Source of the DNA: Lama guanicoe
Taxonomy: Eukaryota
Assembly: GCA_013239625.1 (NCBI GenBank)
Contig: MU055864.1
Location: forward strand, 11,084,397-11,148,396
Direction: 5' to 3'
DNA length: 64,000 nucleotides
Shown here: positions 4,008-57,799 of the stretch, one piece after another
How the letters are laid out: each line of letters starts with the position of its first letter
How positions within the stretch are numbered: position 1 is the stretch's first letter
Program-made: the position numbers and the translations under genes
Notes under the pieces: model-generated
The model's input: the letters and a program-made list of their open reading frames with translations, nothing else
The model's database searches: none
What the model was told of the DNA's origin: nothing

Positions 4008-4116
4008 TAAAAATCTTTATTTATCTCCCCTTAATGGAGGCACTGGGGATTGAACCCAGGACCTCGTGCATGCCAAGCACATGCTCTGCCACTGAGCTAC
4101 ACCTATCCCACCCCCC
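4008..4116 (-). mobile_element. tRNA-Ala-derived camelid SINE (vic-1 type)
   Basis: ggggattgaacccaggacctc...ccactgagcta (reverse B and A boxes). TSD aacaatcgattttt (3994-4007) / aacaattgattttt (4117-4130). Confidence 0.9.
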
Positions 4117-15400: not shown

Positions 15401-16720
15401 CTATCAGGGCTCTTGAAAATTTTATTATCTGAAACAAATGTTCCTGTGCATTTTAAGCAGAAGATCGACATCAAGACCATGGCTGATTTTCAATGGACAA
15501 TTTACACAAAAGATCTATATGTTTTTTTCCCCCCTGGAAACTGAGGTGTCATTGTAAAATGGCTGCTTTTTGGTCATTAGGAAATTAGAGGAATAGATAC
15601 GTTTGAGAAGGCGCTTGGGTTTATCCACAATCCCTGATTATTTTGCTCCCAAACAAGGGTTTGGACTCTGAGGACAGATTTATAGTTGAATTTGGGAACA
15701 AAAAGATGTAATAAAGTTAAAGGCTTACACTATTAGAATGAGACGCGTTCACTCATGATCTCTGGAGCGATCTATTTGATGGTAAAAGTGGATGTTACAG
15801 ATGAAATCTTTACAAGGAGCATAATCCTTAAAAAAAAAAAAAAAGGAAAAAAAAAAAGTGCACCTCCCAGCCNNNNNNNNNNNNNNNNNNNNNNNNNNNN
15901 NNNNNNNNNNNNNNNNNNNNNNNNNNNNNNNNNNNNNNNNNNNNNNNNNNNNNNNNNNNNNNNNNNNNNNNNNNNNNNNNNNNNNNNNNNNNNNNNNNNN
16001 NNNNNNNNNNNNNNNNNNNNNNNNNNNNNNNNNNNNNNNNNNNNNNNNNNNNNNNNNNNNNNNNNNNNNNNNNNNNNNNNNNNNNNNNNNNNNNNNNNNN
16101 NNNNNNNNNNNNNNNNNNNNNNNNNNNNNNNNGAAAGGATGCTGCGTCCATGTAGCCAAGAGGACCTGGGGGACGCTGTGCAGCATGAATTCATATTCTG
16201 CTCGCCCCTCCCTCCCCTCCTCTCCTTTCCTAGCCCCTGTTCTTTCCGGTCCACTCTCTTTCCTCTCTCCTCTCTCTCCTGTTTATTATTATTCATATTT
16301 ATTCTCTTTCTCTCACTCACATCCTTACTATTTGCACTGACCCCTTCTAATTTTAAAATAATGAGAGCAATCGACCTAACTTTGTATATACATAAATTGT
16401 GACATACATATATATATGTAAATGAACTGAGACAAATCCTGGTAGGAAAATTCATCTCTCCAGGTCTATGTGCTGGAGTCGAGTTGGGAAATGATGCCAG
16501 GTGGTGAAGTTCTAGAGGGGGTACCTTCAGTAACTCCTTCTAGAGAGAGAAATGGGTAGCCTTTCTTCCTTCAAACTGTATTTCACAATCCAATTTTTAG
16601 AAATTACCAAAAACAGGACACTAGATGTTCAATTTCCTAGGAAGTCAAAGTAAATTTGACCTTATCTGTCTTTCTCTCTGTTTGTCTGCCTTTCCCCTTA
16701 CCTCTCTGTCTGCCTTTCAG

Positions 16721-16732
16721 GTTGTTAAACAG
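16721..16732 (+). other. Candidate 12-nt microexon GTTGTTAAACAG
   Basis: 68-nt AG-free, CU-rich tract (16651-16718) with TGC at 16687 and 16711. Acceptor ttcag, donor CAG|gtgact. Confidence 0.45.
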
Positions 16733-17989
16733 GTGACTATTATGTCAAGGGGAATTATGTCATGGTTGTATTGAAGCTTTTTAGATGCAAGAGCTTAAGG
16801 AAGGATATACATCATTTGATTGCTTGTAAAGATTGAGCTTTTTTTGGTTAGTATTTGTGAAAAGAAGTTAAAGGGTACAAGTAGCTTTCATCTGACTTAC
16901 ACAGAAGAGTAAATTTGTCTTTTTGACCATGTATACTTCGGAAACAGGCGAATACATCTTTTCTTTAATGCAAAATCCTCATACAATGAAAGTTATTCTC
17001 TTGGACCTCCCACGACTGACAGTCTGTGAGATGGTGTCCTGTTTCGTTGGAATTGAAACTGACAATGGATTTTCTACTTTGCACTAAACACTGTACCAGA
17101 AGTTGGTGGTGTGTGTGTGGGGTGGGATGTTTTCCCAAGTTTGAGATTCATTGAAGTCAGTGGAAAAGTTAATGCTGGGGGGAGAGGCTTAATTTTAATA
17201 CCCAGTTTTGGCTTTCTTTGGAAATCATCTTCCATTTTATGTATGTAGCGACTTCCATGCAAGGTGTACCTTTGGCCAGGTTGTAAGGTTTCTCGAAGAT
17301 ACATTGTTTGTGTGGTGTCAGGAAGACATACTCTAAACATCATTGGACTAAAAGATGAAAATGAACACTGCTACTTCTAACATTTGTGCTAACTTGAGTT
17401 GAGGGGGAGAGACTTGGGCTTCGTAAGCTTAGAAAGATCCATTCAGCCCCTCAAAATACTAGATTTGAATTTTCCCGTTGGGAAAAAGTATAATGTCGTC
17501 ATTGGTGTGAAAGACAACGTGACTTAAGCTCTAGCCGTGAAGGAAAAACGTATCCTTCAGTCCTGAGTGGGGTGAGGCTTGTGTTCTGGGCACGTGGGCA
17601 GCACGGGCCCTTTTTAATGTCCTTGTGTGGACTGTTCTCCGTAACGACTCGCTGTGTCTCACTAGGTACATTCTCCTGCTCAGCCCTCTTGTCATGTGGT
17701 TTCATTGTCTCCCTTGTGAATTATTAAGGCTGAACATACTTTTAAAAGAACTAAATGGGCATCCTTGATTTTTATCCTTAGACATGGCCAGATAGCATCT
17801 GAGCCTTTATACCGAACAGTCTACAGATTAAAAAAAGTGGGTGGTTAGAATTGGAACAAGACATTGACGTTCCATTGTCCCTTGCTCTGCTGGGTCTACT
17901 GGTAGAACCCAAAGTTGGGTCGGAGTGGGCAGTTTTTCGAAAGCCCTCTCTCCCCCATGTAAATTCCATCATCATCGTGATCATGATGG

Positions 17990-18248
17990 ACTTTACTCCT
18001 GGGAAAAGGAGTTTAAATGAGAGCGGGGGTGGGGGGAGAGCGAGAGAGAGACCCAGAATTTTGAATAGTTTCTTTGCTTTATTCACCATCTGGAGAGCCC
18101 TGATTGATTAGCTTTGGCCCCACCATTAAGTGTCAATATAATCAATGGGAATGACTGGGCTAGGGTCATTACATAGATAATTTGCCTGCTGTGTAAATAA
18201 AAATGAAATTGTTTAAATTTTGCGAGAGAGAAAGAACGCGAAAATAAG
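17990..18248 (+). promoter_or_regulatory. TCF4: Internal TCF4 promoter / conserved non-coding element upstream of the TCF4-G first exon
   Basis: TE-free and directly 5' of the 7b-type exon. Contains a GA-rich tract, proneural E-box CCATCTGG (18086-18093), PBX/HOX TGATTGAT (18101-18108), ATCAAT and forkhead-like TGTAAATA. Confidence 0.65.
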
Positions 18249-18398
18249 NNNNNNNNNNNNNNNNNNNNNNNNNNNNNNNNNNNNNNNNNNNNNNNNNNNN
18301 NNNNNNNNNNNNNNNNNNNNNNNNNNNNNNNNNNNNNNNNNNNNNNNNNNNNNNNNNNNNNNNNNNNNNNNNNNNNNNNNNNNNNNNNNNNNNNNNNN

Positions 18399-18429
18399 TT
18401 GCAGACACTGCCAGTCGTGCCTACTTTAC
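18399..18429 (+). CDS. TCF4: Visible 3' end of the alternative first exon (7b-I type) encoding the TCF4-G N-terminus; the ATG is expected near 18336, inside the N-gap
   Basis: TTG CAG ACA CTG CCA GTC GTG CCT ACT TTA C|gtatgt = LQTLPVVPTL. C+GT gives R in frame with KTERG. The human TCF4-G N-terminus ends ...SCLHTLPVVPTLR (recalled). Confidence 0.88.
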
Positions 18430-18546: not shown

Positions 18547-18611
18547 GTAAAACAGAAAGGGGCTCATACTCATCTTATGGGAGAGAATCAAATTTACAGG
18601 GTTGCCACCAG
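18547..18611 (+). CDS. TCF4: TCF4 constitutive coding exon, 65 nt, phase 1 to phase 0: (S)[21 protein letters not shown]
   Basis: Acceptor ttgttgtttctcttggcag and donor CAG|gtaagt (18612-18617). GT AAA ACA GAA AGG GGC TCA TAC ... TGC CAC CAG matches human TCF4 residues ~102-123 as I recall them. Confidence 0.97.
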
Positions 18612-20207: not shown

Positions 20208-20391
20208 ATGGTCATGGCAGAGGCGTGTGTTTTCGCTGGGCCTCCTTTTCTGGTCAATGAGAGAATAGGCTTCCTCGCCCCTGTATCCTTTCTTCCTAAT
20301 AGGAATTGGCGTGATTCCTCACAGACACAAAGATTTCCTCTGCTGAGTAAGCGCCGGGCCCCTTAACTTGTGAGAGCATCACCCAGACGGC
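20208..20391 (+). other. TCF4: Candidate alternative first exon with two donors (8b-I/II type); 5' end approximate
   Basis: Donors TGA|gtaagc (20347) and GGC|gtgagt (20392), with a further CAG|gtgaga at 20497. CpG-rich context. Confidence 0.5.
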
Positions 20392-20807
20392 GTGAGTCTG
20401 TCAGTGTGTGTGCAGGGGCGCAGACCCTCCCTCGGTGCGTGGGAAATACTTCCCTCGGGTGCAACCGAAGTTAACCTTTTTGGGGGCAGACACCAGGTGA
20501 GAAGTGGACCGGGGCGGAGGGTGGAGGAGAGGTGGACGGACTGGCGTGTGATGGCTGCGTTTCTGGGCCTCGGGGATGTCTCGTTTTGAGACATTCAGGT
20601 CCAGGACAAGTAGGTTGTGTACGGCTGCATGCGCTTTTCTTGAAAAGTCTTCATCACAGAGCTGGGGAGCGTGGCGATCCTTTCATTCTTATTTCTGCTT
20701 CATGGTTGTGAGTCTTGCAAGTCCGGACTCTCTCTTTGCTGAGCCTGGGCTCAGCAGTGTCTGTAAACGGTGGGATCGCTTCAGGAGAAAGCAAAGAGCA
20801 CGATTTT

Positions 20808-28495: not shown

Positions 28496-28627
28496 TTTTT
28501 TCTTTCTTTTTTGGGGGGGGGGTAACTAGGTTTATTTATTTATTTTTAGAGGAGGTACTGGGGATTGAACCCAGGACCTTCTGTATACTAAGCATGTGCT
28601 CTACGACTTGAGCTATACCCTTCCCCC
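28496..28627 (-). mobile_element. vic-1-type SINE
   Basis: Same tRNA-like body with a T-rich tail (reverse orientation). Confidence 0.9.
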
Positions 28628-40095: not shown

Positions 40096-40209
40096 TTAGG
40101 TGTGTTTATTTATTTAATTTTTTTTAAATGGAGGTACTGAGGATTGAACCCAGGACCCTGTGAATGCTAGGCACTGACTCTACCACTGAGCTATACCTCC
40201 CCCCTCTCC
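40096..40209 (-). mobile_element. vic-1-type SINE inserted in an L1 (tail runs into the N-gap)
   Basis: gaggtactgaggattgaacccaggacc...ccactgagctatacc; L1 sequence resumes after 40209. Confidence 0.88.
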
Positions 40210-41365: not shown

Positions 41366-42439
41366 CAAGAATAAAGGACTGATGTCTGTTCTACACCCGA
41401 CCTATTTCTATTACTGTTATTATTAACTCTAGTTTTTAAATGCTAGGTTTTAGCTTTCTGGAGTAAATGGACCACGCAGCTGAGTAAATTAAATACTCCA
41501 CAAAGAAAACTGAACTGGTCCCTGCTCTTGGGGAAATGGCTCTGCGCTCGAGGGCTGGTCCCTTACCCTCCCTCCTTGTCCTGGTGAACTCCCTGCCTTT
41601 CCTCAGGGAGGTTTTCTGACGTGTCCTCTGCTTCCCAGGGACACACTCCCTGCCTGCGTGCTCCTGGAGCTCCGATTGCCTCCTCCATCCCTGCTTCCCG
41701 CTGAGGCGTAGCGATTGTCCAGGAGTTTGGCTTTCCCTCCACGCTGCAGAGCCCTGAACCGGCTCTTTCTTACTTGTTTGTGCAGATGCGCTGTCTGATG
41801 TACAGCCTGGTGAAGAAACTTGCTGAAGTCATGCAGTGTTCTGCATTGTTTATCGTGTGGACTTGGATGTTTTGCCTCCTTTTCGGCTTTCCTCTTCTCA
41901 CCTGCCTTCCCCTCCACCACTCACCCCTGCACCCCTCCCTAGGATGCTAGCTCTTAAGAAAAAGAGGTAAAAAGCCCTCACACTTTTGTTTTGACATAAG
42001 TAACTTCCTGGTAAATTTAGTCAGAACTAGACTAAATCTGTTGTTTGGAAGAGGGAGTATCCTCTAATAACTAGAAATGAGGTCGATTGGAAATTGTTAC
42101 ACAGTTGAGAAATTTGACATCTTTTTGTGAACAGCAAGTCGAGATCATTTTAGTGCTAGGCGAGTTGTGTAAGAGACAGCTTGTTGTAAGTCTTCACTCA
42201 GAGGAACTTCTGTGGTTCTCAAACTAGCCTTTCTTTGAACGTCGTCTCTCTGAAACATTCTTTCTTTGTGTTGACCTGTACTTACTTATGCACCACCCTT
42301 GGGTGGGTAACTAAGACTTACTTAAACCTTCCTAGCTGAAAGAGTTTTCCAGAGTGGGTAATAAACATTCTAGTTTTCTGGGTGTCATCTATAAGGGCAG
42401 AGGGGACATTTGACGTGTAGTAGATATTCCGGTTGGATT

Positions 42440-53734: not shown

Positions 53735-53868
53735 GGGGAGGAGGATATAGCTCAAGTGGTAGAGCACATGCTTAGCATGCACAAGGTCCTGGGTTCAATC
53801 CCCAGCACCTCCTCTAAAAAAAAACATTAAACGAGTAAATTAAATTATCTGTGCAACCCCTCCCACCC
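53735..53868 (+). mobile_element. vic-1-type SINE
   Basis: tatagctcaagtggtagagcacatgcttagcatgc...gggttcaatcccc. TSD atgtcgtaac (53724-53733) / atgtcataac (53869-53878). Confidence 0.92.
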
Positions 53869-56660: not shown

Positions 56661-56902
56661 GTCTTAGAACATTGTTTTTAATACTTCTTAGTGCCATTCT
56701 GGAGGACTTAACATAGAAGAGTTCAGGCAAATTGTGCATGGATAGTGTAAGGACGATTAGGCCATGTCACTTCCTGTGAAGAAATATACCCAAACTGTGT
56801 GTTGTATTGAAGCCCAGTTCTTGAGTCATTGCCTTGATTGTTTTATTTCTACCTCTTGCTCTGTCTCCATTTCTGTTGCCATTTCACTTTCCGCCAGCTC
56901 CA

Positions 56903-56992
56903 GGGGGGAGGATATAGCTCAGTGGTAGAGCACATGCTTAGCATGCACAAGGTCCTGGGTTCAATCCCAGTACCTCCATTAAAATAAATAAA
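56903..56992 (+). mobile_element. vic-1-type SINE
   Basis: tRNA-Ala(AGC)-like body and (A)AAT tail. Imperfect TSD tcactttccgccagctcca / tcatttccaccagctgca. Confidence 0.92.
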
Positions 56993-57799
56993 TCATTTCC
57001 ACCAGCTGCATTGAGTACCTACTGTCTTCTGATTCTATCTGCTCCATGCTACTCCCCGTAGTGAAGAAATTAGAATCCCAGTGCTGAATATCGTGTTTAG
57101 ACCTCCTTGCTGCATGCTAAAGGAGGAGGAATTTCTCAGCCAGCTGTTTTAAATTCTTCTGACCTGTCTGCTATGTATGTTCCCCAGAGTAACAGTCCTC
57201 TTCAAAACTCTCCACAATCCATCCCTCTTCTTCTCGCTGTGACTTCCTTCCTGTCTCCTGCAATGTCTTTTCTGCTGGAGGAGTGTAGTGTCACTAAGTC
57301 TGTGGTTCCCAGGTTGTGCCTGCGTTACCCGAGCTGTTCCAGATTCTCTATGGAACCTGGCCTCCGGGGGTGAATGATCAACCATCTGACAGCTCGACAT
57401 GTTTAGGGAAGTCCAATCATTTTTCAGCCAAACTGATCATAGATAATAACAAATGTAAACCTTCATGCGTGTGTTTAGGTGAACATACAACTAATTTCTT
57501 CATAGGCTTTACACATTCTGACTCTCTAAATATATTTTAAAGGACTGAGAGAGTAATTAGGAAGCAGCAGAAGTTTTGTGGAAAATATGTGTTGAGCCTC
57601 TTGAGTAGTAAGGGTCAAATTTTAGGTTTCGTATGAAGTGTTCATGAGTTGGTGGTGTTCTTAAAGACCACTCCAGGGGCACAAGAGAAAAGTTGAGGAC
57701 AGGACTGAATATACAGGTGTAGGAGTGATATGTCTACTAGGGTAGAGATGGAGAAGTTATCTTCATGACTGGAACCTTTGGAATCATGTAAACATGACT

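Follow-up and report, generated by a model that had tools for sequence, protein, structure and literature searches.

The window analysed here, a stretch of 64,000 nt from Lama guanicoe, carries part of the TCF4 gene on its plus strand. Its 65-nt exon at 18547..18611 (+) corresponds to exon 7 as numbered by Sepp et al. 2011, which is exon 6 in the NM numbering. Two alternative first exons, 7a and 7b, were placed by eye against the human, chimpanzee, mouse and rat alignments in the available part of Sepp et al. 2011 (PMC3137626), and the distance from 7a to exon 7 is about 18 kb. In the long intron ahead of exon 7, downstream of first exon 7a and upstream of first exon 7b, lies a site with the layout of a 12-nt microexon. 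It is separated from exon 7 by 1814 nt, a gap of 150 N included, in agreement with the preliminary description, which had put it about 1.8 kb upstream of the 65-nt exon. Its position outside both first exons, with 7a occupying 1 to about 292 and 7b starting at about 17925, rules out that the site belongs to either. On the downstream side, the published alignment sets in about 1.2 kb from the site. N gaps of 132-260 bases occur ten times in the window as a whole, and one of them (18249-18398) spans the coding start of 7b. The features of the locus, with their basis in brackets, are as follows:

1..~292, plus strand: 3' part of the TCF4 alternative first exon 7a, with donors I-III (by-eye comparison with Fig. 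S2 in the available part of Sepp et al. 2011, PMC3137626)
16651..16718, plus strand: AG-free pyrimidine-rich tract with TGC at -34 and -10 and a branch-like A at -62 and -21 (sequence)
16719..16720, plus strand: candidate acceptor AG (sequence)
16721..16732, plus strand: candidate 12-nt microexon, reading (Ser)-Cys-stop in phase 1 (sequence; inclusion predicted only)
16733..16740, plus strand: candidate donor GTGACTAT (9 of 11 matches to the U1 complement, exonic CAG included)
~17925..18429, plus strand: region of the TCF4 alternative first exon 7b, with donor I following 18429 and an N gap covering part of the region (by-eye comparison with the same figure, PMC3137626, as far as available)
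18547..18611, plus strand: TCF4 internal exon 7, 65 nt (protein comparison)
20303..20391, plus strand: internal acceptor within first exon 8b, giving Glu-Leu-Ala-stop after exon 7 (89 nt with the GTGAGT donor)

The 68-nt tract consists to 81% of C and T and contains TCTCTC and TCTG runs. The candidate acceptor is the first AG beyond it, and the 12 nt that follow end in an exonic CAG in front of the donor hexamer GTGACT (16733..16738), that is, CAG/GTGACT. Two TGC trinucleotides start at -34 and -10 relative to the acceptor, and the words TTGAC, with its A at -62, and CTTAC, with its A at -21, are predicted branch sites only. A duplicate of 12 bases is visible by eye within the tract, with copies at 16684 and 16708; Tandem Repeats Finder called no tandem repeat across the tract, this duplicate included. 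All of these elements, from the AG-free CU-rich tract with its duplicated sequence to the acceptor, the 12-nt exon and its donor, had been named in the preliminary description and were recovered at the positions given here. Counting the exonic CAG, 9 of 11 positions of the donor match the U1 complement, and position +5 is a C. Only nine plus-strand sites in the window reach 9 of 11 matches; the candidate donor is among them and surpasses every other donor within about 380 nt of the candidate acceptor. According to an approximate matrix, it scores 8.1 versus 12.9 for TCF4 exon 7. A structured RNA element was considered for the site and rejected, as folding was no better than that of shuffled sequences (z = 0.25). 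A further CT-rich low-complexity tract is located 400 nt upstream of the candidate (16200-16280, plus strand), with an AG at 16232-16233 and no good donor near.

The intron is in phase 1. Exon 7 begins with GT, and a Ser precedes KTER in 155 of the 173 proteins holding the start of exon 7, which bears out the earlier statement that a Ser codon is split here. Joined in this phase after exon 6, the candidate reads Ser-Cys-stop, and TCF4-B would end at residue 103; inclusion would therefore bring in a stop despite the 3n length, as had been proposed. This stop sits far upstream of the last junction, with exons 7-21 still to come, as expected of a poison exon, and by the standard rule NMD is predicted. 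A stop in phase 1 is found in 15% of random 12-mers, so that its presence in the candidate is what unselected intron gives. Transcripts started at 7b, 8 or 10, which had been proposed to remain untouched, indeed have their start sites downstream of the candidate. The account of the affected transcripts had one omission: first exon 7a lies upstream too, and 7a-started transcripts also run through the site.

The arrangement resembles that of SRRM3/4-dependent neural microexons, in which, according to the accessible part of 10.1101/2024.09.17.613571, a UC-rich tract is followed by a UGC between the branch point and the AG. With 12 nt between AG and GT, the candidate falls into their length range of 3-27 nt, and it shares with them a long AG-free zone, an upstream UC-rich tract, a UGC between the predicted branch point and the AG, and a good match to U1. 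In contrast to these microexons, which are usually conserved, frame-keeping coding exons, it has a stop and a donor with C at +5. Microexon 5 of Bak1 (Lin et al. 2020, after the summary in PMC13542418) is likewise a tiny exon with a pyrimidine tract suiting PTBP1, and its neuronal inclusion leads to NMD; this exon was shown experimentally and silences its gene, whereas the candidate is predicted and would act on long isoforms only. CU repeats lying ahead of the 3' splice site, as also seen in the candidate sequence, mark non-conserved cryptic exons repressed by PTBP1 and PTBP2 (PMC5959245, citing Ling et al. 2016, in the sections covered). Furthermore, there are cryptic microexons that bear UGC and UCUC motifs and show less than 10% inclusion, among them those of VastDB (10.1101/2024.09.17.613571, in the part accessible). 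Common to both sets and the candidate are a CU-rich tract, splice sites deep in an intron, the lack of annotation and a stop on inclusion. The PTBP1/PTBP2-repressed exons were seen in RNA after depletion of these factors, while the candidate is predicted from its sequence.

The frequency of such sites was assessed by a scan of the plus strand for AG-free zones of at least 40 nt and at least 75% pyrimidine, with a GT 3-27 nt downstream. Among 23 sites of this layout in the window, the candidate ranks first by its donor. The acceptor-like tracts of the plus strand number 27, with 11 of them bearing TGC; on the other strand, 13 such tracts were counted, none with TGC. With the window's own acceptor-like tracts and its donor density, one or more sites of the same quality would arise with a probability of 0.18 at loose cut-offs (11 TGC-bearing acceptors) and 0.05 with cut-offs fitted to the candidate. 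By U1 pairing, this probability amounted to 0.17 for 8 of 11 matches and to 0.04 for 9 of 11. Markov simulations, with each of two orders, gave 3/40 at loose and 0/40 at strict cut-offs, but they yield too few pyrimidine tracts (11-14 versus 27 real ones) and thus overstate significance. A second look-alike was found at 41943-41966 (+), in the intron after exon 7; it comprises 24 nt, again a 3n length, its fifth codon is an in-frame stop, and it has an AG-free zone of 104 nt, a TGC at -14 and the donor GAG/GTAAAA. Look-alike sites amount to about 1-2 per 62 kb in the window. The candidate exceeds chance only mildly and is a good-looking yet unexceptional draw.

Signs of use were sought in gene maps, catalogues, the literature and protein entries. 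In the parts of these papers that were covered, the candidate is absent from the human TCF4 map with its 41 exons (Sepp et al. 2011, PMC3137626) and from the 32 mouse Tcf4 exons obtained by Tcf4-enriched direct long reads from P3 cortex (Sirp 2022, PMC9666405), where the newly described exons are first exons only. It is not mentioned in the passages covered of Nurm 2021 (PMC8519306) and PMC11101122, nor was it found in those of PMC13705553 and PMC12626420. The mouse microexon catalogue of Parada 2021 (PMC7821500), comprising 2,984 microexons from 289 samples, has no row at the orthologous place in the portion of the table covered. This place was inferred by coordinates, with the exon-7 donor of the same table (chr18:69520026) as the anchor; the table carries no gene names, and all six matches to the prefix covering mm10 chr18:69.51 Mb were unrelated rows. 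A GTAAG entry of 5 nt with a high conservation score also appears there, within a later Tcf4 intron (mouse chr18:69612672-69612677), and looks more like a recursive splice site than an exon.

Decay-resistant or decay-blocked material was included as well. In the human and mouse brain circRNA microexon table of Rahimi 2021 (PMC8355340; 11 of 20 supplements searched), the candidate is not among the 13 chr18 rows; the part covered has three mouse Tcf4 rows, all known and elsewhere, and no human TCF4 row. As a circRNA table should escape masking by decay, this negative counts for silence, with the provision that an entry requires five reads in a Tcf4 circle spanning the candidate's intron. The StringTie-based AS-NMD tables from cycloheximide-treated differentiating mouse neurons (Zhuravskaya 2024, PMC11188260) do not list Tcf4 in the 12 of 13 supplements covered. 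The catalogue negatives weigh little, since decay depletes poison exons, many aligners miss exons of 12 nt, and the window is neither human nor mouse.

For the protein comparison, 233 TCF4 proteins were used, with only 15 of the 3,668 members of the main cluster among those listed. A Ser-Cys end after the end of exon 6 was seen in none of 207 proteins, and a 4-residue insert before the start of exon 7 in none of 173, though two other human truncating isoforms are present in the set. A coding 4-residue microexon in other species was rejected on the same count. Literature on TCF4 together with microexon, SRRM4, poison exon or NMD gave no description of the candidate among the papers listed, though subscription journals, VastDB and further supplements may contain one. 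In metagenome, genome and viral contigs, four scans for sequence patterns returned no match, even for a 26-mer identical in four species, and these collections are therefore uninformative and not negative.

Truncation beside exon 7 is documented by other routes. The human entry A0A1B0GTP2 and its chimpanzee and bear counterparts have 102 aa and end with exon 7 followed by Glu-Leu-Ala (...CHQELA), although non-human TCF4 entries may be projections of human annotation. The sole AG in the window that is followed by Glu-Leu-Ala codons and a stop is the acceptor at 20303, inside first exon 8b. By eye, human, chimpanzee, mouse and rat all share this AG and an in-frame stop as codon four in the available part of the published alignment (PMC3137626), and this species has both as well. 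The GTGAGT donor at 20392, use of which would give an exon of 89 nt (20303-20391), is not kept in the rodents of that alignment, and donor 8b-I is used only in cerebellum according to the text covered (Sepp et al. 2011, PMC3137626). The stretch 20303-20391 is likely a hybrid of first and internal exon acting as a poison exon for long isoforms. Another human entry, A0A6Q8PGE3, ends in ...IQKSPWR; this entry and the protein P0228 are truncated soon after exon 6 in SPWR, which is consistent with a frameshift caused by skipping of the 65-nt exon 7. This reading presumes a particular frame of exon 8. Both entries resemble the candidate in that a premature stop beside exon 7 affects only transcripts of upstream promoters. 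They differ from it in their routes, the 8b acceptor at 20303 and apparent skipping of exon 7, neither of which goes via the 12-nt site. Annotation already includes routes, at other places, that truncate only long TCF4 transcripts, which renders the idea of long-isoform truncation less novel.

The intron in question also hosts an additional exon in ruminants. Five TCF4 proteins of sheep, goat and oryx (P0004, P0005, P0007, P0008 and P0009) contain an in-frame exon of 11 codons (33 nt) between exons 6 and 7. Neither the candidate nor another site of the window was accepted as its orthologue, the best match in the window showing 11 mismatches over 31 informative positions. Elsewhere in the window, a tRNA-like SINE of about 90 nt occurs in five copies that are 78-92% alike (4016-4115, 28531-28627, 40105-40205, 53736-53839 and 56902-56993); the last of these presumably resembles a camelid SINE.

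We regard the 12-nt site, with reasonable though not strong confidence, as a splice-competent cryptic microexon left out of almost all transcripts. Its CU-rich tract would bind PTBP1 and PTBP2, and the length of 12 nt, which hampers exon definition, would together with PTBP binding keep the exon silent. Rare inclusion would be most plausible in neurons, where PTBP1 falls and SRRM3/4 are high. Translation of transcripts including it would end after codon 103 of TCF4-B, NMD would clear them, and the effect on isoform balance would be small. The site is probably lineage-restricted and not a conserved switch; that lineage-restricted exons arise in this intron is indicated by the ruminant-only 33-nt exon. 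A chance of 0.04-0.18 for an equal site, the second look-alike and the negatives from catalogues and proteins support the cryptic reading. Against it count the first rank among the 23 sites, the best donor near the acceptor, and the full UCUCUC...UGC layout with the UGC between the branch-like site and the AG.

The same layout, in agreement with the described SRRM3/4 architecture, is what led the preliminary description to propose regulated inclusion. In this reading, a conserved neural poison microexon would be included in neurons by SRRM3/4 acting via the UGC at -10 and by the loss of PTBP1, TCF4-B/C-type transcripts would decay, and the short isoforms from 7b, 8 and 10 would be spared. The good donor with its first rank in the window, alternative promoters on both sides of the site and the precedent of the PTBP1-repressed neural poison microexon of Bak1 (PMC13542418, in the text covered) are in line with such a switch. 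However, the covered parts of the mouse and human catalogues and gene maps bear no trace of it, no matching truncated protein accompanies the other human truncating isoforms, and an equally good site has the chance probability given above. In addition, TCF4-B and -C remain the main brain isoforms (PMC9666405, in the sections covered), which also speaks against it. We consider this switch unlikely. The same low probability is assigned to its widest form, in which a mammal-conserved, SRRM3/4-activated and PTBP1-repressed poison microexon of 12 nt escaped notice owing to its small size and the destruction of its product, and shifts neurons from long TCF4 isoforms with activation domain 1 to short ones. 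Regulated inclusion as proposed before is thus unproven and on balance unlikely, and the link to Pitt-Hopkins syndrome depends on conservation in human, from which the window differs.

Absence from human and mouse catalogues is to be expected if the site is a young exon that is measurably included in the brain of this species alone, reduces long TCF4 isoforms through decay and lacks a human counterpart. Adequate splice signals with SRRM4-type motifs and the ruminant-restricted cassette exon annotated in the same intron are compatible with this explanation, yet look-alikes at about 1-2 per 62 kb are far commoner than real microexons, of which the whole mouse catalogue lists 2,984 (PMC7821500, as far as covered), and we hold it to be rather doubtful. 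Finally, a GT directly follows both AGs, and a recursive (ratchet) site, at which AG/GT regenerates a donor and nothing is kept in the mRNA, might be expected in a very long intron, 7a alone being about 18 kb upstream of exon 7; the mouse Tcf4 GTAAG entry elsewhere in the gene looks recursive too (PMC7821500, portion covered). But scanning from the branch point would select the first AG, where the regenerated sequence is GTTGTT and departs widely from the donor consensus, and the second AG lacks a separate tract, which makes a recursive site very improbable.

If the 12-nt site is the silent look-alike that we favour, it is of little consequence, as introns contain many of them, and the internal acceptor of 8b is the better-grounded lead for truncation of long TCF4 isoforms. 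Should the 12-nt exon prove conserved and included in neurons, it would add a layer of splicing to the control of TCF4 isoforms, so far described via promoter choice. It would then also offer a therapeutic target in a haploinsufficiency disorder, as a block of the exon by antisense oligonucleotides would raise long TCF4 in Pitt-Hopkins haploinsufficiency.
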